Source of the DNA: Oceanococcus sp.
GTDB taxonomy: Bacteria; Pseudomonadota; Gammaproteobacteria; Nevskiales; Oceanococcaceae
DNA: 64,000 nt
Assembly: GCA_041619555.1 (NCBI GenBank)
Contig: JBFKDQ010000005.1
Span: forward strand, 31,004-95,003
Direction of reading: 5' to 3'
A program made the position numbers and the translations under genes. Under the pieces are notes generated by a model. That model did not search any database. It was not told where the DNA came from and was given only the letters and a program-made list of their open reading frames with translations. This document shows, piece after piece, positions 7,392-64,000 of the stretch; within the stretch, counting starts at the first letter, position 1, and each line of letters opens with the position of its first letter.

Positions 7392-8414
7392 ATGCTCTTA
7401 CGCGCCCAGTCCACCTGGCTTCTCGCCCTGCTGGCCGGCCTGCCCCTTCTGCAGGCCTGCCCCGGCCAGCAAGCCCCGCCGGAGGATCCAGGGGAGGAAT
7501 ACGCTCTGTGTGTCAGCAGCGACTGTGGCGAGGTCACCGTTCTGCTGCCCATACCGGACGCAGAGAATATTCATTTCACCCCGCAGGGACGGCTATTCGT
7601 CACCGGTGGCAGTCAGATTTACGAGGTGAGCACAGACAATGACGGCACGTTCAGCGCAACCGCCCTGAGCGACGAAAATTGCAGCTACACCGGCATGGCG
7701 CAGAAAGGCGACATCCTGTATGCCGCCTGTGGCGATGGCCGCCTGTTTGCCGGGCTGATCAATTCCGCGCCGCAACTGCAGCCCATCTTTCAGATGGAAA
7801 ACATGTGTATTGCCAACGGCATGGCACTGGGTCCTGACGGCCATCTGTATGTGGTCGACGAACCCCTGAACCCCGCCTGCCTGCCGCCCGAACCCAAGAT
7901 CGTTCGTCTGCAACTGGATCCTGCCGATGCACTTCATGTCATCCAGCAGGAGATCTGGCTGGCCGGTGATGCCTTCGGCACCCTGCCCTTCGGGGCTGGC
8001 ACGCAAAGTCGATTTCCCAATGGCCTAGCGGTTCGCGACACACGCTTTTACAGCACGGATGGCGGCAGCATTTTTTACGTCGATCTGCTGCCGGATGGCA
8101 GCGCCGGACCGGTGACGCCGATCTTCTTCGAGGCCACCGCGCACGACGATCTGAGCATCGCCGGCGACAGCCTGCTTGTCACCGATTTCTTTCAGGGCCG
8201 CATCCTGCAACTGAGCCTGGAAGGCGAACTGCTGCAGGCCACCGATCCCGGGAGCTTCGACTCGCCCTCCGCGGTACAACAGGCGCAGCCTCCGATGTTC
8301 CGGGCCGATGACATTCTGGTGACGGAAAAGGGTCTGCTGCTGGAACAGAACCTGCCCATCGACGTGCTGAGCCTGTTCCGGCGCAGGTCTGCGGCCGAAG
8401 CCGCGCCACCTTAG
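7392..8414 (+). CDS. Putative lipoprotein, SMP-30/strictosidine-synthase-like beta-propeller
   Basis: Signal peptide ending LQAC; blade-like motifs ENIHFTPQGRLFV, ANGMALGPDGHLYV, FPNGLAV, DDLSIAGDSLLVTDF. Confidence 0.6.
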   Translation: MLLRAQSTWLLALLAGLPLLQACPGQQAPPEDPGEEYALCVSSDCGEVTVLLPIPDAENIHFTPQGRLFVTGGSQIYEVSTDNDGTFSATALSDENCSYTGMAQKGDILYAACGDGRLFAGLINSAPQLQPIFQMENMCIANGMALGPDGHLYVVDEPLNPACLPPEPKIVRLQLDPADALHVIQQEIWLAGDAFGTLPFGAGTQSRFPNGLAVRDTRFYSTDGGSIFYVDLLPDGSAGPVTPIFFEATAHDDLSIAGDSLLVTDFFQGRILQLSLEGELLQATDPGSFDSPSAVQQAQPPMFRADDILVTEKGLLLEQNLPIDVLSLFRRRSAAEAAPP

Positions 8415-8580
8415 ATCCAAGCGCAGCCCGGATGCCCACCCGGTGACAGTTGGCGGCTTGGCTCGCTACCATTCAGCCAGGGCATCAGCAGATCGGCCCG
8501 CCGACGCGTTTCGAAGCGGATCGGAATCCGTCCGGCGGCGATGACGAAAACATGACAGGCCAGGCCACAGGATTCCGTGC

Positions 8581-9588
8581 ATGACAAGCTCCGAAGCACG
8601 CCGCGTACCCCCGCCGGCGGATCATCTCTCACCGCTAGACGCCAGCCTTGCCGGCCCCCACCCGCACTGGCAACCGATGGGCAAGGACCACGGCCCACAT
8701 GAGCACGTGGCCGCGATCGACGATCTGCAACTCGTCTATACCCGTGAGGGTCGACCGCAAGATCCCGCCGTGGTGCTGATCATGGGCCTGGGCGGCCAGT
8801 TGCTCAGCTGGCCGGAAGACTTCTGTCGCGGACTGCTTGAGGCGGGATACCAGGTCATCCGCTTCGACAACCGGGATGCGGGTCGCTCGACCAAATTCGA
8901 CACCCACGGCGAACCCCCTTTGCTGCGTCTGGCCGGCGCCAGCGCGCTGGGGCGGCCCTTGCAGGTGCCCTACCAGCTGACGGACATGGCCCTGGACGTC
9001 CTCGGGCTACTGGATGCCCTGCAGATTGAAAGCGCGCATATCGTCGGCATTTCCATGGGCGGCATGATTGCTCAGATCCTCGCCGCCGAAGCGCCGGCCA
9101 GAGTGCTCAGTCTGACCAGCATGATGTCCACCAGCGGCCATCCCGAACTGCCGGGCCCCAAGCTGCACCTGCGCCTGCGCATGCTGCGGCGACGTTCGCC
9201 CCATCCGGACCAGGCCTTGCGGGATTCCATCCGCAGCCTGCAGCTGATGGGCAGTCCGGCCTATCCGCGCTCACAGGAGGAACTGGCCCGCATCCTGCGG
9301 CCGCAAATCCAGCGCGGATTCCACCCGGCGGGCATCAAGCGCCAGCTCGCCGCCATCCTGGCCAGCGGCAGCCGGACCGGACTCCTGCCCGCCATCCAGA
9401 TTCCTGCCCTGATCATGCACGGCGATGCCGACCCCTTGATTCCGGTCGCCGCCGCCCATGATCTGGCGGATCGAATTCCCGGCGCGCGCCTGGATATCAT
9501 CGAAGGCCTGGGACACGATCTGCCGACCCTGGCCCTGCCTCGCATTCTCGACACCCTGCTGCAGCATCTCCACCAGGCCGACACCTGA
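8581..9588 (+). CDS. Alpha/beta fold hydrolase (esterase/lipase); start uncertain (8581 or 8677)
   Basis: LIMGLGGQ, RFDNRDAGRS, nucleophile GISMGG, HGDADPLI and GLGHDL triad motifs. Confidence 0.88.
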   Translation: MTSSEARRVPPPADHLSPLDASLAGPHPHWQPMGKDHGPHEHVAAIDDLQLVYTREGRPQDPAVVLIMGLGGQLLSWPEDFCRGLLEAGYQVIRFDNRDAGRSTKFDTHGEPPLLRLAGASALGRPLQVPYQLTDMALDVLGLLDALQIESAHIVGISMGGMIAQILAAEAPARVLSLTSMMSTSGHPELPGPKLHLRLRMLRRRSPHPDQALRDSIRSLQLMGSPAYPRSQEELARILRPQIQRGFHPAGIKRQLAAILASGSRTGLLPAIQIPALIMHGDADPLIPVAAAHDLADRIPGARLDIIEGLGHDLPTLALPRILDTLLQHLHQADT

Positions 9589-9603
9589 ACGGCAGGCGGC
9601 GAT

Positions 9604-10362
9604 CTAAGTCTCTGCAGTCGGCTCGACTGGCGGCGCTGGCGGCGCGTCCGGCCGCGCGCCAAAGATGTCCACGTAGCCACGATAATTGGCCGCCAGCGTC
9701 ACCGGCACCAGAACCAGCAATCCCAGCCCCAGAGGGAGAACGGCAATCAGACCCAGTGGAATCATGATCAGGCCGAAAACACTCAGCGCAGCCAAGTTGC
9801 GCCAGCAACCCCGGTAGCTGGTGCGCAGCGCCTCGAACACCGGCATCGGCTGCAAGGCGACCAGGGCGGTGGCAAACCACATGGCCAGAACCAGCGGTAA
9901 AAGCAACAACAGGCTGAAACTCAACAGCCACAGCAGGGCCGCAGGCTCCGCCGCCGCCGTGTCGAGCGAAGCGCCGTCCACCAGCACCAGTCCCAGCACC
10001 GAAACCAACACGGCAAACAGCGCGAACAGACCCAGCGTGGCGAGCCCCAGCAGGGCCAGGGCGCCGACCCGATTACTGGAAAAAGCCGAAAACAGATGCG
10101 CAATTCTGAGGCTGCCGCCGGTTTCCAGCGCCAGGCAGCCAGCGAGCATGCCGGCCGTCAGCACCGGGCCAAGAATCGCCATGGCCAGAGGCCCCAGTGG
10201 CAGCAGATTCGCGCCCGCCTGTAGCAGCAACCAGATCAGTGCGATCACGATCCACTCGCCCGGCGCTCGCATGAACAAGCCGAAACCCTGTCGGACCCAT
10301 TGCCAGCCCTGCGCAGCCGGCCAATGGCGAAACCTCTGTTGCTCATCCTGTTGCGAATTCAT
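9604..10362 (-). CDS. BPSS1780-family membrane protein
   Basis: AAQGWQWVRQGFGLF start, LGPVLTAGM, EALRTSYRGCWRN motifs; multiple TM helices. Confidence 0.75.
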   Translation of the reverse strand: MNSQQDEQQRFRHWPAAQGWQWVRQGFGLFMRAPGEWIVIALIWLLLQAGANLLPLGPLAMAILGPVLTAGMLAGCLALETGGSLRIAHLFSAFSSNRVGALALLGLATLGLFALFAVLVSVLGLVLVDGASLDTAAAEPAALLWLLSFSLLLLLPLVLAMWFATALVALQPMPVFEALRTSYRGCWRNLAALSVFGLIMIPLGLIAVLPLGLGLLVLVPVTLAANYRGYVDIFGARPDAPPAPPVEPTAET

Positions 10363-53590: not shown

Positions 53591-53656
53591 GCGCGCCGGA
53601 TCGGGCCAAACAGCCCCCCGTGCTACCCTTGCCCCTCAAAACCAAGAGTATGTTTG

Positions 53657-54136
53657 ATGGAAATTGCAGCAAATTCCGTGGTCAGCTTCGACTACACCCT
53701 GACCAATGAAGCCGGCGATGTGCTGGACACGTCCCAGGGTCAGAGTCCGATGTCCTACCTGCACGGTCACGCCCAGATCATCAGCGGCCTGGAAGAGGCC
53801 ATGCAGGGCCGCAAGACCGGGGACGCCTTCGCCGTCACGGTAGCGCCGGAACAGGGATATGGCTTGCGCCAGGACGATCTCATCCAGAGCGTGCCACGCA
53901 GCGCTTTCGCCGGCGTCGATGAAATTGAAGCGGGCATGCGTTTTCAGGCGCAGGGCGCCGACGGTCCGATGATCGTCCGCATCGTCGATCTCAGCGAAGA
54001 CTCCGTCACCGTAGACGGCAATCATGAACTGGCCGGCGCCACCCTGCATTTCGACGTCGCCATCACCGACGTGCGTGCGGCCACCGCGCAAGAACTCGAA
54101 CACGGTCATGTGCATGATCACGGGGCCGATCACTAG
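53657..54136 (+). CDS. slyD: FKBP-type peptidyl-prolyl isomerase / metallochaperone SlyD
   Basis: VVSFDYTL, YLHGHAQIISGLE, VDGNHELAG, His-rich tail ELEHGHVHDHGADH. Confidence 0.93.
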   Translation: MEIAANSVVSFDYTLTNEAGDVLDTSQGQSPMSYLHGHAQIISGLEEAMQGRKTGDAFAVTVAPEQGYGLRQDDLIQSVPRSAFAGVDEIEAGMRFQAQGADGPMIVRIVDLSEDSVTVDGNHELAGATLHFDVAITDVRAATAQELEHGHVHDHGADH

Positions 54137-56074: not shown

Positions 56075-56281
56075 CTAGGATACGTGCCTGTCAGGCTGGC
56101 CGCTTGGCTTTTTCCGGCCCAGCCCGGCCGCATGTGGCCGCCAGAGCACCGCCAGCAGCACGCCGCAGAGCAGCGCCGCCAGGATCTGATCAGAATGATA
56201 ATCGCCCGGCGAATGGCCGGCATGCGCCAGCAACGGGACCGACCAGAGCCAGAGCAGGCCGGCCAGAATTGCCGCCCTCAT
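56075..56281 (-). CDS. 68-aa small membrane protein (signal peptide, AHAGH motif, one TM helix), last gene of the hydrogenase operon
   Basis: ATG overlaps the hypB stop (ATGA at 56281-56278); MRAAILAGLLWLWSVPLLAHA-GHSPGDYHSDQ-ILAALLCGVLLAVLW. Confidence 0.55.
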   Translation of the reverse strand: MRAAILAGLLWLWSVPLLAHAGHSPGDYHSDQILAALLCGVLLAVLWRPHAAGLGRKKPSGQPDRHVS

Positions 56282-57078
56282 GCCAAAACCGCCTGCGATC
56301 GGTCGCACGCCGGCCTCGCCCGCGATCGGGCCCGCGCCCTGAGCCAGTCATACCAGCCGCTCAGCCCGGCGCCGCTATGCGCCGACAGCTGGAGGATTTC
56401 GAGGCCGGGATTGACCTGCCGGGCAGCCGTCAGGCAGGCCTGCAGATCGAATTCGAGATGCGGCAGCAAATCCACCTTGTTGATCAGCAACAGATCTGCA
56501 GCTCTGAACATGTGCGGGTATTTCAGGGGCTTGTCCTCGCCCTCGGTGACGGACAGGATCACCACCTTGGCCTCCTCACCCAGGTCGAACAGGGCCGGGC
56601 ACACCAGATTGCCGACGTTCTCGATGAACAGCAGGCTACCGGCAGGCGGATCGAGCTGATCCAGACCGCGCGCCAGCATGTCCGCTTCCAGGTGACAGCC
56701 TGCCCCGGTATTGAGCTGCACCACCGGCACACCGGTTTCGCGGATCCGGCGCGCATCGGCCAGAGTCTGCTGGTCGCCTTCAATCACCGCCATCGGCAGT
56801 TCCTCGCGCAGATCCGTCAGGGTCCGCTCAAGCAGGCGGGTCTTGCCCGAGCCCGGCGAACTCAGCAGATTCAGGGCAACAATTCCGGCCGTGGCGAACC
56901 GCTCGCGGTTGAGCTCGGCCAGACGGTCATTGCGCCCCAGCAGATTCTCTTCCAGGCGCAGGATCTGGGCATCCCGGGCATGGTGCTGATGCGGTCCGTG
57001 ATCCTTGTCCTCACCCAGGCCGTGCATTCGCGTTACCGTCAGTCGTGCCTCGCTGGAACATCCACAAGTCGTGCACAT
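56278..57078 (-). CDS. hypB: Hydrogenase nickel incorporation GTPase HypB
   Basis: N-terminal MCTTCGC, His patch, SSPGSGKT, GAGCHLEA, IENVGNLVCPA, EGEDKPLKYP, NKVD motifs. Confidence 0.96.
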   Translation of the reverse strand: MCTTCGCSSEARLTVTRMHGLGEDKDHGPHQHHARDAQILRLEENLLGRNDRLAELNRERFATAGIVALNLLSSPGSGKTRLLERTLTDLREELPMAVIEGDQQTLADARRIRETGVPVVQLNTGAGCHLEADMLARGLDQLDPPAGSLLFIENVGNLVCPALFDLGEEAKVVILSVTEGEDKPLKYPHMFRAADLLLINKVDLLPHLEFDLQACLTAARQVNPGLEILQLSAHSGAGLSGWYDWLRARARSRARPACDRSQAVLA

Positions 57079-57081
57079 GAA

Positions 57082-57420
57082 TCAGTCTCCTTCGCTCAAT
57101 TCCAATTCCGTAATTTTCAGTTCCTGCCCGGCCAGCAGGCGGAAGTCCATCTGCCCGCAGCTGCAGTGCGCACCGGTCGACGGCAAGGCGAAATCCGCCC
57201 CGCAAGCCAGGCAGCGCGCAAGTCCAGAAATCTCCTCGATTTCCAGACGCGCGCCGGCAAGCGGGGTGTTTTCCGTGACCACATCGAAGCAGGCGCGCAT
57301 CGCATCGGGCAGCACCGCGGACAGCGCGCCAACCGCCAGACGCACCCGCAGCACCCGCCGACCTTCGGCGTGGGTCCGGGCAATCTCGACAATGTTGCGG
57401 GTAATCGACAGCTCGTGCAC
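57082..57420 (-). CDS. hypA: Hydrogenase maturation nickel metallochaperone HypA
   Basis: (M)HELSI start (GTG), CLAC and CSC zinc ligands, GQELKI. Confidence 0.93.
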   Translation of the reverse strand: MHELSITRNIVEIARTHAEGRRVLRVRLAVGALSAVLPDAMRACFDVVTENTPLAGARLEIEEISGLARCLACGADFALPSTGAHCSCGQMDFRLLAGQELKITELELSEGD

Positions 57421-57422
57421 AG

Positions 57423-58475
57423 CTAGAGCTTCCACAGACGGCAGTACCACTCGCCATCCACCGGCAGGGGCAGTTCCGGCAGATCACACCAGCGCCGCCG
57501 CGGCAAGAAATAGATGCATTCCGCACAGCGCATCGGACCATCCGGCCCCGGCACCGGATGGTCGGCAAAGCCACCAATGACCAGGCGCTGCTGCAGATCG
57601 TCCGGCGCCAATTCGCGCAGCTGCTTGAGGATCTGTTCGAACTCCACGTCGGTTTTCGGAAACGGCTGAATCATGGTTTCAAGACCGGCCGCCATGAACC
57701 GCCCGATCAGCAGACGCAACACGTCCAGCGCCACTTCACGCAGGGTGATCCAGACCCGATGGCCCTCTGCCGCACACTGGCTTTCCAGGCTGACCAGTAG
57801 ATCGGGAAAAAAGTCCAGGCGGCGCAACTCGCAGAAGCTCTCACCGCCATCGAGCAGGATGGCCTCGACCTCATGCAGCTGCCCCGGCAGCGGCGCCAGC
57901 CGTCCCAGAACGGCGGCCACCAGCGTGCCCCACTGCGACTGCGCCTCCAGCCGCCCCAGCGGGCTTCGTTTCGCATGCAAGGGCTGGCCGATCGCCTCCA
58001 ACACGCGACCATCGGCCGCATCCAGGCGCCAAGCACGCAGCACGCCCGGTTGCTCCAGCATGCTTTGCACTCGCTCGGATCCGGCGGGCAAGCTGTGCCA
58101 GGCGGCCTGCAGGGCCCGCAGGCCGGCCAGATCGGAGCGATAATCCAGGGCCACGGCAAACGCCTCGATCGCCTCGCCCAGACAGATCAGCACGGCATGA
58201 CGACCGAGCTTGAGAGCCAGCAACGCCTGCGCCGGCATCTGCTTCCAGGCCTCTGCCTCACCCCGAAACAAGGCCATCGCCGCTGCCACAGGTGCCGGCG
58301 GGCAGGTCGCCTCGCCCAGATGACTGACCTCGTTGGTGCGCTGCGCGATGAGACCCAGGCGCGACCAGCGCCCATTGGTCGCGCCACAGGCCGACAGAAT
58401 CTGCGTCAGACTGTCGCGATCCAGACCCTGCAGCACGTCTGCGGCGATCCGACCTGCCTCCTCGTTACCGCTCAT
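57423..58475 (-). CDS. Hypothetical 350-aa protein: Roadblock/LC7-like region plus C-terminal 4-Cys HiPIP-like Fe-S module
   Basis: Coupled on both sides (ATGA with the NHL gene; 2 bp to hypA). C317-x2-C320-x9-C330-x14-C345-x2-W near the C-terminus. Residues ~136-250 resemble Roadblock-like domains. Confidence 0.65.
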   Translation of the reverse strand: MSGNEEAGRIAADVLQGLDRDSLTQILSACGATNGRWSRLGLIAQRTNEVSHLGEATCPPAPVAAAMALFRGEAEAWKQMPAQALLALKLGRHAVLICLGEAIEAFAVALDYRSDLAGLRALQAAWHSLPAGSERVQSMLEQPGVLRAWRLDAADGRVLEAIGQPLHAKRSPLGRLEAQSQWGTLVAAVLGRLAPLPGQLHEVEAILLDGGESFCELRRLDFFPDLLVSLESQCAAEGHRVWITLREVALDVLRLLIGRFMAAGLETMIQPFPKTDVEFEQILKQLRELAPDDLQQRLVIGGFADHPVPGPDGPMRCAECIYFLPRRRWCDLPELPLPVDGEWYCRLWKL

Positions 58476-59620
58476 GCACTAACCCTCCTGAGTCCATCTC
58501 GCTGGCAGGACAATGGCGCCAATGACCAGTCCTGAACGCGATTATTGCCGGTGTCCGCGATCAGCAGCCGCTCCTGATTCACCGCCAGACCGTAGGGCCA
58601 GCACAGGCTGTCGGTCGCCGGCAACTGCCAGCGATTGTCGCCGGCCCGCTCGAAGTCCACCTGGCCATGCAACAGACGGGGCAAACGGTCCCCCTGACAC
58701 CATCCCAGCAGGCGGGAATTGGCGGTATCGGCAACCAGCAACCACTCCCGCCATACCGCAAGTCCATAGGGCATCGACAGGCTGTCGCGCTGCGGCCGCG
58801 CGTGGCCCCGGTTGTGCAGCCTGCCGGCACAATCCGGCTGTCCCAGCACCTCGACGCAGGCCCTGCCGGAGCGGTCCGGCAGGCCCGACCAGCGCATGAT
58901 GCGATTGCAGCCGGCATCGGCCACCACCAGATCGCCGCACCAGCGCGCCAGCGCATGCGGCCAGACCATGCCGGCGGCATCCAGGTCCACCCCGCCGTTT
59001 TGATCACGCCGCTGCATGCTGAGCTGGCCGAGCACCAGATCGGCCGCCTGCCCGCTTTGCTGCGGCAGACCATGCCAGATCAGCACGCGCCGGTTGCCGC
59101 TGTCCGCCACCGCAAAGATGTCTTCATCCCAGTACAGCCCGCTCGGCCAGTGCAGGCTATCCGCCGTAGGCGCCGGCGCGCCGCGATTGGCCAGCCCTTG
59201 GCGGCCATCGTCCTGGCCCAGCACCAGATCAGGCGGGGCGTCGGAGGACTCCGGCGAACGACGCCAGATCAGCACGCGATGATTCCAGGAATCGGCAAGC
59301 GCCAGACCGGCACCAACCGCGCACAGACCCACCGGCGTGCTCAGGCTGAGGTCCTGCACCGCACCGCCCGCATTGCGCGCCTCGCCGCGAAAGTCAGGCT
59401 GGCCCCAGCACAGCTGGGCGCCACCGCCCGCACGATCCGGATCAAAGGCCAGCAGGCGGTGGTGTCCGCTATCAGCCACCCAGATTCGCCCTGCCTGCGC
59501 GCAGACGCCGCGCGGCCCGAACAGCTGGCTTGCCGACGGCTGCAAGGCCTGCTGGGCAAACAGCGTCGCCGCTCCGAACTCCTGTCGCGGCCGTTCGCCA
59601 AGCCTGCAGGCGGCGCTCAT
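58472..59620 (-). CDS. NHL-repeat beta-propeller protein, hydrogenase-associated
   Basis: Repeated P-x-G-[LV]...[VI]ADS-x-N-x-R-[VL]L-x-W and DLVLGQ motifs. Confidence 0.88.
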   Translation of the reverse strand: MSAACRLGERPRQEFGAATLFAQQALQPSASQLFGPRGVCAQAGRIWVADSGHHRLLAFDPDRAGGGAQLCWGQPDFRGEARNAGGAVQDLSLSTPVGLCAVGAGLALADSWNHRVLIWRRSPESSDAPPDLVLGQDDGRQGLANRGAPAPTADSLHWPSGLYWDEDIFAVADSGNRRVLIWHGLPQQSGQAADLVLGQLSMQRRDQNGGVDLDAAGMVWPHALARWCGDLVVADAGCNRIMRWSGLPDRSGRACVEVLGQPDCAGRLHNRGHARPQRDSLSMPYGLAVWREWLLVADTANSRLLGWCQGDRLPRLLHGQVDFERAGDNRWQLPATDSLCWPYGLAVNQERLLIADTGNNRVQDWSLAPLSCQRDGLRRVSA

Positions 59621-60153
59621 TCCGCCGCCGCCGCGAACGGACTCTGCACCGGAGCCGCACCGGCTTGCAGGGTACCGGCGGTGAGGTCCCGCACCTGGCG
59701 GATCTCCGGGCAGGCTTCACGGATCGCCCGGACCACGCCCGCGGTCAGCGTGATCGCGGAGGCCGGGCAGCCTTCACAAGCACCGACCATGCGCAGCAAG
59801 ACCGTGTCCGGCGGCCGGATCTCGATCACCTCCACATCGCCGCCATGGGCATGCAGCAGGGGCCGGACGCCCCGCAAGGCCGCTTCGATGCGCTCATCCA
59901 GCGAGGCCTTGATCAGACCCAGTCGACGCCAGACGGCATAGATCAACGGCCGCGTCGCCAGCGCCTTGAGCCGGCCGGCGGCGACCGGCTCGGCGCGCAG
60001 GCTGGCCAGCACTTCGGACCAGGCAGCGCGCTGTATGGCGGCATCCAATTCACGCGTCTCCCGCCAGGCCTGCGCCTGTTCCGGCGTCCATTGCCCCACC
60101 TGCAGTTCCAGCGCCTGCAGACGCTCCAGGGCCTGTTCGAGCTGAAAACTCAT
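59617..60153 (-). CDS. NifU/Nfu-like Fe-S scaffold or carrier, hydrogenase-associated
   Basis: EAALRGVRPLLHAHGGDVEV...GACEGCPASAITL (Nfu CxxC); ATGA overlaps on both sides. Confidence 0.88.
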   Translation of the reverse strand: MSFQLEQALERLQALELQVGQWTPEQAQAWRETRELDAAIQRAAWSEVLASLRAEPVAAGRLKALATRPLIYAVWRRLGLIKASLDERIEAALRGVRPLLHAHGGDVEVIEIRPPDTVLLRMVGACEGCPASAITLTAGVVRAIREACPEIRQVRDLTAGTLQAGAAPVQSPFAAAAE

Positions 60154-61088
60154 GCCAGCGCCATCCGGCTGGCGGCCACCAAAGTGGCCCGATCCGGCAG
60201 GCCATGGGCGCAGAACAGCTGCTCGGCCTGGGCCAGACAGTCGCGGGCCCGCGCGATCGGCTCGAAATCCAGATCCTGCGCCCGCAGGCTGGCCAGACAT
60301 TGCCCCATGTTGGCCAGGGTATTGGCGCGCTCCAGCGGGGCCGCCTGCACGGTGCGCACCTTCAAGGCCTCCTCATAGGCCTGCAGGGCGCGCAGACAGT
60401 TCTCCTGACGATGACCGCTGAGCACCGACTGCAGGGCGTTGCCAAGATTGTTCTGCAACATCGCGTACTCGCGCGGATGATCTTGCAGCCGGATGTGCGC
60501 GAGCGCGGTTTCAAAGGCCTGCACGGCCAGGGCCTCGCGCAATTTGCCGGCCTGGAGCTCGCCGCCCATGCTCAGATAGGCGGTGGCCAGATTGTTCTGC
60601 AGGATCGCGTATTCCGCCGGATATTGCGCTGGCAGGAACACCCGCAAGGCCTCCTGATAGGCGGCAATGGCGGCGCCCATGACCACCCCGGGGACACGCT
60701 CCGCCGCCAGACTCTGCAGCACCAGGCCGAGATTCATCTGCGCCTCCGCCCATTCCGCCGCAAGACCTTCGCAATGGAGCACCGGGATCGCCTGCTGCAG
60801 CAGATCACGCGCCCGCTGCAGCGCATCGATGCCGCCCTGCGGGTCCTGCGCCAGCGCGGTGGCCTGGCGTGCGCGGATCCGCGCCTGGGTGAGCGCCGGT
60901 TCGTTCTCCGCCCGACTCAGGGCCTCGCCGTAAAGCCTGACCGCCAGCCCGAGATCCGCCGGATCGCGCGGCCTTTGCTGCACGCCCATGGCCATTTCCA
61001 CCAGCATGTCGACTTTGGCATAGGCCGCCAGGTCTTCCCGTTCGAGCATCGCCAACGCCGCGGCGAAATCGGCTTGTGCGCGACGCAT
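60150..61088 (-). CDS. TPR-like helical repeat protein, hydrogenase-associated
   Basis: Repeats AEWAEAQMNLG, AEYAILQNNLA, REYAMLQNNLGNAL, ANTLANMG; start overlaps the protease stop. Confidence 0.85.
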   Translation of the reverse strand: MRRAQADFAAALAMLEREDLAAYAKVDMLVEMAMGVQQRPRDPADLGLAVRLYGEALSRAENEPALTQARIRARQATALAQDPQGGIDALQRARDLLQQAIPVLHCEGLAAEWAEAQMNLGLVLQSLAAERVPGVVMGAAIAAYQEALRVFLPAQYPAEYAILQNNLATAYLSMGGELQAGKLREALAVQAFETALAHIRLQDHPREYAMLQNNLGNALQSVLSGHRQENCLRALQAYEEALKVRTVQAAPLERANTLANMGQCLASLRAQDLDFEPIARARDCLAQAEQLFCAHGLPDRATLVAASRMALA

Positions 61089-61570
61089 CAGGCCGCCCTC
61101 ACCCGCAGGTCGCGATGCAATTGCAATCGCAGCCGGCCATTCAACTGCTCCACCGCAGCGGCCACCGGCGCGCTCAGTTCCAGGCCCAGCCCGGTGTCCG
61201 CCACCTCGATCAGGTAAACCCTGACCGTCGCCGGATAGCTCGCGGCCGACATGCGCTGGGCAATGGTCAGGGCATCATCCCAACGCAAGGCATGCGAATC
61301 CCGCGGCGGTTCACGGCGCGAGACGAAAGCTTCACCCGGCACCTCGAACACCGCCCCCGGCGGCTGCCCCGAGCGGCAGGCGTCGATCACGATCAGCTCG
61401 CGTGCACCACGCGCTGCAAACAGCACGGCCAGGCCGTCGGTGGCCGCATCCAACAGCCGCAGACCGGGCGCGGCAACCAGAAGGGGATCCTTGCGCAGAG
61501 CCGCCAGCACCGCCGGGCCGGCGCCATCATCCCGGCGTGCAAGATTGCCGCAAGCGACGACCGCGATCAT
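61088..61570 (-). CDS. Hydrogenase maturation endopeptidase (HupW/HybD-like)
   Basis: IAVVACGNLARRDDGAG, IVIDA, DSHAL motifs; ATGA overlap with the large-subunit stop. Confidence 0.92.
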   Translation of the reverse strand: MIAVVACGNLARRDDGAGPAVLAALRKDPLLVAAPGLRLLDAATDGLAVLFAARGARELIVIDACRSGQPPGAVFEVPGEAFVSRREPPRDSHALRWDDALTIAQRMSAASYPATVRVYLIEVADTGLGLELSAPVAAAVEQLNGRLRLQLHRDLRVRAA

Positions 61571-63165
61571 GCGATCCGGAACGCGGCCAGTTCCTGGCCG
61601 GTGTGCGCATCCTGGGCATGCACGGTGCACACCAGACAGGAATCGAAGGAACGCGCCACATGCCCCACTTCCACCGGGTCACTGGCCTGTGCGATGGGCG
61701 TGCCAATCAGGGCTTCCTCGATCGGCCCCCGATGGCCACTGCCATCGCGCGGCCCGACATTCCAGGTCGTTGGCGCGATGATCTGATAATTGTGAATCTT
61801 GCCGTTGCGCACCTCCAGCCAGTGCGCCAGCGCACCGCGGATCGCCTCGGTGGCGCCCCAGCCCTGTCCGTCACGTTCGGTCGGTTTCAGATACCAGGGT
61901 TCGGCCAATTCGAAAGCGCGCAGGCAACGCTCGGCTTCGCGATACAGCTTGACGGTTTCATGCAGGCGAGCGAAGTGGCGCAGCAGCACGCTGGCCCCGC
62001 CCATCTGCCGATACATGTCCAGCAGCAGCGGGTCATGGTGCTGCCAATCTGCTGCGTCGCTGCGACCCGCCACCAGCTGGCGCGCTAGCGGCCCCGCTTC
62101 CAGGCGACCATACTGCGCGTGCAGCACCGAGGTCGACCAGGAATACTGAGCGTCAAAATCGCGCTGATTTTTCTGCGTCGGGGTGGTTACCCGATCAAAG
62201 GGATGTACCGAGTCCTGGCCTTCGTCGTACCAGGCCCGCGACATGTTCTCGCGCACATCGCGCTGATGGGCACTGTAAAAAGCATCCGCAGCGGCATCAA
62301 AGATGCCATTGGGCATGATCAGGGCCGCGTCGCGCCCGTCGATATCGGGCTGCTGATAGCGGTCCTCATGCGGCAGATACCCCCAGGTCAGAAAACGATC
62401 CAGGCCTGCGCCATAGCGATCCAGGCCGATATCCAGACCCATGCGCCAGTACAAGCCGAGATCCGAGTTGGCATGGGCCGGCGACTCATCCAGCCAGGTC
62501 AGAAAATCCGCATGGCTGCGAATCTCCTCGTAGCGCTCCAGACTGCAGCCCAGCAGCACCGGCTCGATCCAGTTGCGACGGAAATATTCCAGGATCGAGA
62601 ACGATCGCGTGACGTCGGTGAGGGTCGGCGCGCACATCACCCCGCCCGGCACCATGAAGCTGGAATGTGGCCATTGCCCGCCGAACAGGGCGTAGATTTC
62701 CACCGGCTTGCCGGAAATCGTCACGCCGATCTCGTAGTGCCGCCCGGTGTAGGCGGTCCAGCGCGCACAGGCCTCTTCGTAGTACGGGCTGTTGCGGTAA
62801 TTGGGATGGGTGAAATCGATCGCGAACAGGGCGTAATGGTGGCGCGGAATGCTCTGCAGGCTTTCCGCGATCTGGCCGAGATTGCGCGCGAGTATGGCAT
62901 TGCGCGGCACTTCCGTCTGCCACAGGGTGTCCAGCGCCCACACCGCCGAGCTCAGATGCGAGGCGCCGCAGATGCCGCAGGTGCGCGGCGTGACGATCAG
63001 CCCGGCCTGCGGGTCCTTGCCTCGCAAGATGACTTCAAAACCACGAAACAGCTCGGCGCTGGTCCAGGCATCCACCACCCGGCCGTCGGCAATTGCGACC
63101 CGAACATCGAGATCACCCTCGACCCGACCGACCGGCGAAATATCCAGAGTCTTGATCTTGCCCAT
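61567..63165 (-). CDS. hucL: [NiFe]-hydrogenase large subunit, group 2a (Huc / cyanobacterial HupL type)
   Basis: PVGRVEGDL, L1 PRTCGICGASH, GGQWPHSS, L2 RSFDSCLVCTVH followed by a 16-aa cleavable tail. Confidence 0.9.
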   Translation of the reverse strand: MGKIKTLDISPVGRVEGDLDVRVAIADGRVVDAWTSAELFRGFEVILRGKDPQAGLIVTPRTCGICGASHLSSAVWALDTLWQTEVPRNAILARNLGQIAESLQSIPRHHYALFAIDFTHPNYRNSPYYEEACARWTAYTGRHYEIGVTISGKPVEIYALFGGQWPHSSFMVPGGVMCAPTLTDVTRSFSILEYFRRNWIEPVLLGCSLERYEEIRSHADFLTWLDESPAHANSDLGLYWRMGLDIGLDRYGAGLDRFLTWGYLPHEDRYQQPDIDGRDAALIMPNGIFDAAADAFYSAHQRDVRENMSRAWYDEGQDSVHPFDRVTTPTQKNQRDFDAQYSWSTSVLHAQYGRLEAGPLARQLVAGRSDAADWQHHDPLLLDMYRQMGGASVLLRHFARLHETVKLYREAERCLRAFELAEPWYLKPTERDGQGWGATEAIRGALAHWLEVRNGKIHNYQIIAPTTWNVGPRDGSGHRGPIEEALIGTPIAQASDPVEVGHVARSFDSCLVCTVHAQDAHTGQELAAFRIA

Positions 63166-64000
63166 CAGATCACGAAAATGTCATGTTCGGCCCAGGCGGG
63201 TGCCGTCGCCTTGGCCGCGGAGGTTAGCTGCACGTAGCCGGCCCGGTCGAGCCCGGCAGGCAGGTCACGCGGCAGCCCCATCACGGTCTGGCTGCGAAAC
63301 ACCGTGCCCGGCGCCAGATCGTAAAACGGGAACTCGGGCTCGGTGCAGCCGATGCAGGGCATGCCGGCCCGCGTCTTCGAGGACTGACGATTCCACAAAA
63401 TGCGATTGCAGGGCGAATGCGTCATCGGCCCGCGGCAGCCCAGATCATAGAACAGACAGCCCTTGCGCTGGGCGAACTCGGTGGCGGACACCTTGTAGGT
63501 GTAATGCATGTTGCGGGTGCAACCGGTCTGGGTGAAGCTTGCGAAAAAGGTCAGCGGTCGCTGCAACTCATCCAGGTCGATCTGCGCCGCCTGACCACTG
63601 GCCACCGCAACCAGGATCTGGGTCACCCAGTCGGGATGTGCCGGACAGCCCGGAATATTGATCACCGGCAGACCGGCAAGGCTTAAGAAACCGGTCCCCA
63701 GCGCCCCACCGCGTTGGCGCTTGAGATATTGCAAACCTTCGGAATCGGTCGGATTTGGCGCCATGGCCGGAATGCCGCCCCAGGTCGCGCAATCGCCGAT
63801 TGCGACGACATACCGCGCCACATCGGCCAGGTCCTGCACCCAGTCCTTCATCGGTCGCCCGGCATAGCGGTTCCACTCCCCGGTGCCGTCGGGAGCGTTG
63901 ATCACCGTGCCCTCGAAGACCAGGATATCCAGAGGCGTGGCGCCGCTGAGCACCGCTTGCAGCAGGGATTCGAGCGCCTCTCCCAGTTCCATGCTGAGCG
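63165..64000 (-). CDS. hucS: [NiFe]-hydrogenase small subunit, group 2a (5'-partial; runs off the window edge)
   Basis: DILVFEGT, VAIGDCATWGGIP, NIPGCPAHP, FTQTGCTRN (Gln at the distal His position), GCLFYDLGCRGP, SPCN, MPCIGCTEP; frame is open to the edge. Confidence 0.9.
   Translation of the reverse strand, partial: LSMELGEALESLLQAVLSGATPLDILVFEGTVINAPDGTGEWNRYAGRPMKDWVQDLADVARYVVAIGDCATWGGIPAMAPNPTDSEGLQYLKRQRGGALGTGFLSLAGLPVINIPGCPAHPDWVTQILVAVASGQAAQIDLDELQRPLTFFASFTQTGCTRNMHYTYKVSATEFAQRKGCLFYDLGCRGPMTHSPCNRILWNRQSSKTRAGMPCIGCTEPEFPFYDLAPGTVFRSQTVMGLPRDLPAGLDRAGYVQLTSAAKATAPAWAEHDIFVI

Follow-up and report, generated by a model that had tools for sequence, protein, structure and literature searches.

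How electrons leave the group 2a [NiFe]-hydrogenases is the question raised by a locus in Oceanococcus sp., where an unannotated gene lies within a hydrogenase operon. Group 2a enzymes recycle the H2 that nitrogenase produces in cyanobacteria and, in many phyla, sustain the oxidation of H2, both aerobic and atmospheric, and to our knowledge the electron route to quinone is known for mycobacterial Huc only. Outside mycobacteria, the electron acceptor of these enzymes has been called "enigmatic," with HucE as the sole candidate (PMC6883350). The window, that is, the whole stretch of 64,000 nucleotides (nt) that we analyzed, carries on its minus strand an open reading frame (ORF) at 57423..58475, which encodes 350 amino acids (aa) plus a stop from an ATG start. 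This ORF is a genuine conserved gene, the long form of a previously unnamed, hydrogenase-associated family that has no database model. Its C-terminal module carries four invariant cysteines and most likely resembles a HiPIP (high-potential iron-sulfur protein), whereas the remainder is a tandem repeat of predicted Roadblock-like fold. With about even confidence, we favor the view that the protein is a hydrogenase-dedicated redox or docking subunit that would move electrons from the small subunit toward the membrane, the Roadblock-like tandem being an added docking platform.

An invariant four-cysteine module with likeness to HiPIP

To gauge the extent of the family, we compared the whole protein and its C-terminal domain with large sequence collections. 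A word-indexed search of 5.8 billion proteins returned only 14 full-length relatives, and a profile search run exhaustively over 1.84 billion cluster representatives returned 138, about 45 of them full-length (330-545 aa) and many of them ~100-aa proteins that match just the last ~100 profile positions. When the C-terminal domain alone served as the query, 1722 clusters at 90% identity were recovered, mostly stand-alone proteins of 103-107 aa. Among the matches listed, every one named by its source is labeled a hypothetical or uncharacterized protein, and Pfam domains are absent from all of them; RefSeq plasmids likewise annotate the stand-alone copies as "hypothetical protein." For the 350-aa protein itself, neither Pfam nor NCBIfam gave a match at E<=1, and phmmer against PDB sequences gave none either. 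Pfam searches with 7 stand-alone members at E<=1 and with 32 long forms at E<=10 were equally empty, as was the domain profile against PDB sequences.

Several observations accompany these searches. Among genomes, the C-terminal domain has its nearest relatives in metagenome-assembled genomes of Oceanococcus and Nevskiales, at 77% and 70% identity. The stretch 57423-58475 recurs, near-identical, in four sequencing runs of one study labeled marine metagenome, which the tool guesses to be DNA, and the sequencing-run search found no RNA run with the long-form gene among its just four, presumed DNA, runs. Some database "proteins" (P0112 and P0120) join fragments of the hydrogenase large subunit to the family; rather than genuine fusions, these joins most likely reflect gene calls that are frameshifted or chimeric.

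Conservation within the long form is uneven, being poor over the N-terminal ~260 residues of the alignments and very strong over the C-terminal ~95. An earlier, sequence-only reading of this stretch had picked out the pattern C-x2-C-x9-C-x14-C-x2-W near the C-terminus, and the motif is indeed there, as C317-x2-C320-x9-C330-x14-C345-x2-W348 (Cys codons at 57525-57527, 57516-57518, 57486-57488, and 57441-57443, respectively). Neither the four Cys nor W343 and W348 vary across 44 diverse members of the family or across 116 stand-alone homologues, which places the motif far beyond chance. The last Cys always stands five residues from the protein end, within a tail that reads CRLW(K/R)(I/L/M). Alignments and a model of the domain alone divide the module, which spans residues ~255-350, into two parts. 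Residues 263-305 (57561..57689, minus strand) form a helical N-terminal half with the motif GLxT..PFPxTxxEF..LRxL..DL..RLxIGGFADH, predicted by AlphaFold2 (AF2) as three helices at a local confidence score (pLDDT) of 75-90. Residues 306-350 (57426..57560, minus strand) make up the four-Cys HiPIP-like region, the predicted cluster-binding part, which ends with the invariant CRLWK(L).

Three independent lines, each weak alone, agree on a HiPIP-like fold. The first is the ligand spacing of HiPIPs, C-x2-C-x(8-16)-C-x(13-14)-C with flanking aromatics, which the C-terminal domain shares, aromatic shell included. The second is an in-register profile alignment. In hhalign, the domain profile was set against six HiPIPs, each verified beforehand with Pfam (27.7-97 bits, five of them 78-97), and C317/C320/C330/C345/W348 fell on HiPIP C43/C46/C63/C77/W80 with a score of 19.1 (P 0.0058), which none of 200 column-permuted HiPIP alignments reached (mean, 9.9; standard deviation, 2.6; maximum, 18.1). 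The third is structure prediction. AF2 gave the Cys tail a pLDDT of about 33 in the whole protein, modeled from a 15-sequence alignment (mean pLDDT 73, predicted template modeling [TM] score 0.76). For the domain alone, with a 116-sequence alignment, pLDDT was 86, and the model shows three helices followed by a strand-poor knot that holds the Cys. A Foldseek search of this model against 350,542 PDB chains gave three matches at E<=10, of which the top two are HiPIPs: that of Rhodothermus marinus, 3h31 (E 0.29, probability 0.66, TM 0.43/0.53, root mean square deviation 3.6 A over 65 columns, 28% identity), and 3hip (E 2.6), with TM over both at 0.41-0.53. We consider it most likely that the module adopts a HiPIP-like fold and carries a [4Fe-4S] cluster. 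The HiPIP likeness proposed in the sequence-only reading is supported by the spacing and aromatics, the alignment, and the leading structural matches, but not by the Pfam and NCBIfam models.

The four Cys might instead hold Zn, in which case the protein would be a structural adaptor, a non-redox docking or scaffold subunit that oligomerizes or anchors the hydrogenase, HucM-like in function, with the Roadblock-like part adding interfaces. AF2 does not distinguish Zn from Fe-S, and the invariant CRLW(K/R)(I/L) at the extreme C-terminus suggests a peptide-in-groove contact. The common tandem paralogues described below suggest heteromers, and no HucM-like gene was seen in these hydrogenase clusters. 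Nevertheless, the domain is without the second CxxC knuckle of most Zn ribbons, its Cys spacing, aromatic shell, and fold matches favor HiPIP, and a redox module would suit the fusion to a haem b membrane protein, as found in relatives, more naturally. We therefore regard the Zn adaptor as quite unlikely.

Whatever the cofactor, the protein and its Cys domain are cytoplasmic, in agreement with the earlier remark that a Tat (twin-arginine translocation) signal is absent. The 350-aa protein has neither a signal peptide nor a Tat motif, its Cys domain lies behind ~300 residues, and the stand-alone forms begin without an RR motif. The HupS of a relative, moreover, starts directly at MANLLWLQGGACSG, without a Tat leader.

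An N-terminal tandem of predicted Roadblock-like fold

What precedes the Cys module is more difficult to place. The sequence-only reading had likened residues ~136-250 to Roadblock/LC7 domains and had wondered whether the N-terminal part is a second, degenerate copy. The second of these suggestions has held up well: residues 1-130 and 131-262 are homologous by hhalign (P 1.7e-5, probability 78%, 94 columns), and this P value between the halves makes the internal duplication real. In the AF2 model, domain 1 (residues 1-128; 58092..58475, minus strand) and domain 2 (residues 133-262, with a long terminal helix at 243-262; 57690..58079, minus strand) pass through the same series of elements (a helix, two strands, a second helix, three strands, and a last helix), and most blocks of these halves have a pLDDT of 80-90.

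The likeness to Roadblock proteins is carried by predicted structure. In a Foldseek search against the PDB, LAMTOR2 headed the list (E 6e-3, probability 0.9), ahead of numerous MglB chains and Mon1-Ccz1; every E-value in this list exceeds 1e-3, and interspersed in it are sensor domains of IclR and phytochrome, which have PAS/GAF-like folds. Sequence comparison gave no such link, as Pfam Robl_LC7 has no match in 32 members at E<=10 and hhalign of each repeat against a verified MglB/LAMTOR2/DYNLRB1 alignment was not significant (P 0.2 and 0.62). Because of these null results, we name the region tandem Roadblock-like (profilin-like alpha/beta) by predicted fold and do not treat it as a demonstrated family member; the element order and the LAMTOR2 and MglB matches speak for the earlier suggestion, and the profile comparisons do not. 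The models weakly suggest that residues 1-262 form an internally duplicated Roadblock-like pseudo-dimer. A tandem chaperone of the HupH/HoxQ type was also considered and was dropped because there is no Pfam HupH_C match.

Hydrogenase linkage and three forms of the module

To explore the genomic setting, loci were fetched with the domain alone (10-sequence alignment), comprising 80 of 407 confirmed stretches in one-genome-per-species contigs and 68 metagenomic ones. They were annotated by blastp and hmmsearch against reference proteins from the window and its relatives, and the long form was confirmed with a hidden Markov model of its N-terminal half. A hydrogenase structural or maturation gene is present in 144 of the 154 non-redundant loci, so that the co-occurrence with group 2a hydrogenases that the sequence-only reading proposed to examine is evident. 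Six of the ten loci without hydrogenase genes are under 5 kb, and in two the gene lies near a contig end.

Among stand-alone copies, hupL is the nearest upstream recognized gene in 201 of 228. The gene stands directly after hupL and is usually followed by one or two tandem four-Cys paralogues and then the protease. A typical cluster begins with a hoxA-like regulator, hupS, hupL, the 104-aa protein, its paralogue, the protease, small ORFs, and a gene for a tetratricopeptide repeat (TPR) protein. It continues with two ~75-aa ORFs, HucE (NifU plus Rieske), NHL, hypF, hypC, SIS, hypD, hypE, and, in parentheses as it were, hypA and hypB. The HiPIP-like module is the conserved unit, tied to hupSL as tightly as the maturation protease, and the tandem four-Cys paralogues suggest a heteromeric pair or a short electron chain.

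Some features of these clusters deserve mention in their own right. The paralogues, for example at 8001-8683 of locus L009 and 8917-9626 of locus L160, end in the motif ...WSCRLWRI and keep all four Cys. The two conserved ~75-aa ORFs between the TPR gene and HucE (L009 10811-11281 and equivalents) occur in most clusters and are absent from that of the window; one of them has a hydrophobic stretch within its first 30 residues. In the small subunit of L009 (4397-5359), GGACSGN replaces the usual GxCxGC proximal-cluster motif, presumably a reminder of the [3Fe-4S] clusters reported for Huc, and the matching part of the window hupS lies beyond the window end. A DUF3422 protein is encoded just upstream of the hydrogenase-associated genes in two unrelated loci (L001 8364-9716 and L160 2853-4118).

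The long form occurs in at least three settings. In the first, 12-13 gammaproteobacterial loci (Nevskiales, Oceanococcus, Spongiibacteraceae, Litorivivens, and Zhongshania) have it after hypE and before hypA, in the order NHL-hypF-hypC-SIS-hypD-hypE-long form-hypA-hypB; these clusters have the protease immediately after hupL and no short form. In the second, in Acidobacteriota and Thermoanaerobaculia (L027, L074, and L080), it directly follows hupL, which is the slot of the short form. In the third, in Burkholderiales, proteins of 420-506 aa are encoded ahead of the TPR gene, as in L033, or at another place, as in L001, where a sensor-type hydrogenase is the neighbor. The slot before the TPR gene in L033 holds a 111-aa short form in sister genomes, and short forms stand there in L022, L025, L026, and L028. 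These shared slots, after hupL and before the TPR gene, indicate that the long and short forms are positionally interchangeable and that the adjacency to hypA is lineage-specific. In short-form clusters hypE abuts hypA (L057 and L061), and no Roadblock-only gene, a possible fusion precursor, was found between hypE and hypA there.

A third form, although rare, is informative. In a few relatives the HiPIP-like domain is the C-terminus of a Ni_hydr_CYTB/cytochrome b561 membrane protein (P0058, P0055, P0062, L092 429-1631, and L093 2858-4555). In L092, 10 nt separate the 3' end of a group 2a hupS from the start of the fusion gene behind it, and this hupS is nearly identical in sequence to that of the window.

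The window itself represents the first setting, minus the hypF-hypE block at that place. Its minus-strand operon, at 56.3-64.0 kb, is tightly packed in the order hupS-hupL-protease-TPR-like-NifU-like-NHL-350-aa ORF-hypA-hypB. The small subunit (63165..64000) has its 5' end beyond the window, and the large subunit (61567..63165) is of group 2a type, judging from the content of the cluster and from its closest relatives. The maturation protease (61088..61630) comes immediately after hupL, from which it follows that no stand-alone HiPIP-like gene is present in this operon. A conserved TPR/SNAP-like accessory protein (60150..61088), a short-form NifU-like HucE homologue (59617..60153, likely start M50 of the listed ORF; PMC6883350), and an NHL-repeat protein (58472..59620) follow. 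Beyond the long form lie hypA (57082..57420) and hypB (56278..57078), the latter encoding a G3E GTPase with the nickel motif CTTCGC at its N-terminus; all of these genes are on the minus strand. The TGA of the NHL gene overlaps the ATG of the 350-aa ORF (ATGA), and the TAG of the latter stands 2 nt ahead of the likely GTG start of hypA at 57420, a start that yields the canonical HypA sequence MHELSI. The operon contains the genes that mark a group 2a cluster, namely hucS/hucL-type genes, a NifU-like HucE, and the NHL-repeat and TPR accessory genes, and its order agrees with published descriptions of such clusters (PMC7784904, PMC6883350, PMC2408588).

Other aspects of the operon are worth recording. 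With five reference proteins, blastp found no match for hypF, hypC, the SIS-domain gene, hypD, or hypE among window ORFs of at least 50 aa, and these genes are therefore probably encoded outside the window. In all close relatives they stand between the NHL gene and the long-form gene. The sequence-only reading had placed the 350-aa ORF where hypF follows the NHL gene in the Nostoc cluster, and the relatives bear this out, since they read NHL-hypF-...-hypE-long form-hypA and the window lacks the block at that position. The HucE homologue of the window is ~178 aa and has no Rieske domain; most proteobacterial clusters carry a Rieske version of about 290-310 aa, and the short HucE is also found in most gammaproteobacterial clusters that have the long form. 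On the opposite strand, ~2 kb past hypB (53654-54136, plus strand), is the gene for a SlyD-like FKBP peptidyl-prolyl isomerase, the tail of which is rich in His (EHGHVHDHGADH). SlyD assists HypB in Ni insertion in Escherichia coli, and as a known HypB helper its gene may be linked to the hydrogenase operon.

The position of the long form in the window invites the idea that it is a maturation factor, either acting with HypA/HypB in nickel insertion, with the Roadblock part binding or regulating the HypB GTPase and the Cys cluster sensing redox state or O2, or protecting or assembling the Fe-S clusters of the small subunit. A precedent for the latter is the rubredoxin-like HoxR/HupI, thought to protect or assemble small-subunit Fe-S clusters in O2-tolerant membrane-bound hydrogenases. 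Roadblock/MglB-type domains are known partners of small GTPases, the Foldseek matches include MglB and LAMTOR2, and the sole GTPase near the 350-aa gene is HypB (G3E class). The long form is translationally coupled to hypA in the window, with a 2-nt spacer, sits between hypE and hypA throughout the gammaproteobacterial setting, and stays with hypAB even where the hypF-hypE block is gone. Most stand-alone copies, too, lie between hupL and the protease, amid accessory genes. However, the hypA adjacency is limited to one related gammaproteobacterial set and so may reflect a single event, the acidobacterial long forms follow hupL with no hyp genes alongside, and in short-form clusters hypE is directly before hypA. 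HypB, moreover, is a G3E/SIMIBI GTPase and not of the Ras-like type that Roadblock proteins are known to regulate, and the cytochrome b fusions are ill-suited to nickel insertion. On balance, a maturation factor appears unlikely.

A more elaborate version would make the long form a redox-gated checkpoint, in which the cluster reports O2, redox state, or electron output and the Roadblock-like pseudo-dimer controls the HypB GTPase and HypA, thereby gating nickel insertion. If true, this would make the long form the first regulator of Roadblock type to act on a G3E metallochaperone GTPase, but we consider it very unlikely. The presence of regulatory genes raises still another possibility, that of a transducer of redox or H2 signals, with the cluster sensing redox state and the Roadblock-like platform signaling to a HoxA/HupR-type regulator or a sensory hydrogenase. 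In L001 the neighbors of the long form include a large subunit of 486 aa, along with a PAS histidine kinase and a sigma-54 regulator; a HoxA-like gene comes immediately after the long-form gene in L020; and most clusters have a sigma-54 regulator ahead of hupS. Such regulator or sensor neighbors of the gene are nevertheless confined to a minority of loci, no conserved regulator adjacency was seen, and the stand-alone domain is without any signaling module, all of which make signal transduction highly improbable.

A candidate electron partner among known systems

Electron relay, with the protein as a partner of the hydrogenase, fits the wider evidence better than regulation of the HypB GTPase, the two possibilities between which the sequence-only reading had left the matter. 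The free protein is encoded right after hupL, the long and short forms swap slots, and cytochrome b fusions exist, all of which suit an electron partner. The idea of a HypB regulator is weakened by a hypA adjacency seen in one gammaproteobacterial group only and by acidobacterial long forms that follow hupL. For the electron partner that we favor, the HiPIP-like module would dock on the cytoplasmic hydrogenase, with the surroundings of the small subunit's distal cluster as the most likely site, and would act as the first redox partner of the enzyme. Electrons would then pass onward to the membrane through cytochrome b or the quinone pool, or via HucE. The Roadblock-like pseudo-dimer might serve as a platform for protein-protein docking or oligomerization and would not be catalytic.

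Several points weigh against such a role. No Pfam, NCBIfam, or PDB-profile model recognizes the domain as HiPIP (PF01355), the HiPIP E-values in Foldseek are weak (0.29 and 2.6), and the four Cys might hold Zn. In L003 and L093, two loci whose flanks are good, a link to hydrogenase is clearly lacking. Classical HiPIPs have potentials of +50 to +450 mV, too high for ubiquinone reduction, which makes a path from hydrogenase through HiPIP to quinone thermodynamically doubtful unless the potential is lower. A small redox protein among accessory genes could equally be a maturation factor, and both the docking site and the role of the Roadblock-like module are purely what we infer.

A conserved, unannotated family found nearly always beside group 2a enzymes, and occurring as a free protein, a Roadblock fusion, and a cytochrome b fusion, is a concrete and widely distributed candidate for a third component in aerobic H2 metabolism, and it merits its own database model. 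Should the cluster be confirmed, the family would represent a HiPIP-type protein that is cytoplasmic and has a dedicated enzyme partner.

Literature precedent is limited but pertinent. In Acidithiobacillus ferrooxidans, a "putative HiPIP," DN052_04130, is encoded beside the group 2a structural genes hupLS, is present in the proteome, and has been proposed as the "missing link" between cytoplasmic H2 oxidation and the quinone pool (PMC7735108). It is likened to the family by description only and, unlike the long form, stands alone without a Roadblock fusion. The earlier statement that no description of the architecture exists accordingly holds for the fusion of HiPIP-like and Roadblock-like parts, as far as the literature was searched; the free domain, although without annotation, may have been noted on one earlier occasion, in DN052_04130, as a putative HiPIP.

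Comparison with other known systems places the family among small partners of hydrogenases while setting it apart from each. HucE and HhyE are NifU-like putative Fe-S proteins, with Rieske or 2xCxxC, that have been proposed as the immediate acceptors of group 2a/1h hydrogenases (PMC6883350). Like the HiPIP-like family, they are Fe-S-type candidates encoded in hydrogenase clusters, and HucE co-occurs with the family in most of them, but their sequences and folds are unrelated to it. A strict complementarity between the Rieske version of HucE and the HiPIP-like protein was considered and rejected, as L013 combines a long form with a long HucE ORF and L032 and L061 combine short with short. HucM of mycobacterial Huc is a small helical scaffold without a Cys cluster, encoded upstream of hucS, that links soluble Huc to the membrane and quinone (PMC10017518). 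The likeness is that of a small third component encoded beside the hydrogenase structural genes; a relation to HucM itself is argued against by the empty search of PDB sequences with the domain profile, provided that the published Huc chains are in that copy.

As for membrane subunits, rare relatives fuse the HiPIP-like domain to a protein of the HupC/HoxZ/HyaC cytochrome b type (Ni_hydr_CYTB), whereas the window protein has no membrane domain. With Roadblock/LC7 proteins (MglB, LAMTOR2, and dynein light chain; PF03259), the 350-aa protein shares the predicted order of strands and helices in both repeats, and its tandem would mimic the usual dimer of that family; it differs in having no sequence or profile similarity to them and no Ras-like GTPase nearby. 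The closest parallel for the Cys module is HiPIP (PF01355), also a small module with C-x2-C...C...C-x2-W spacing and aromatics beside every ligand. Classical HiPIPs, however, are Tat-exported and periplasmic, while the domain described here is cytoplasmic and without a Tat leader. It is further distinguished by a helical N-terminal extension with conserved motifs of its own, by the invariant CRLW(K/R)(I/L) C-terminus, and by being encoded in hydrogenase clusters, here in fusion with Roadblock-like domains.

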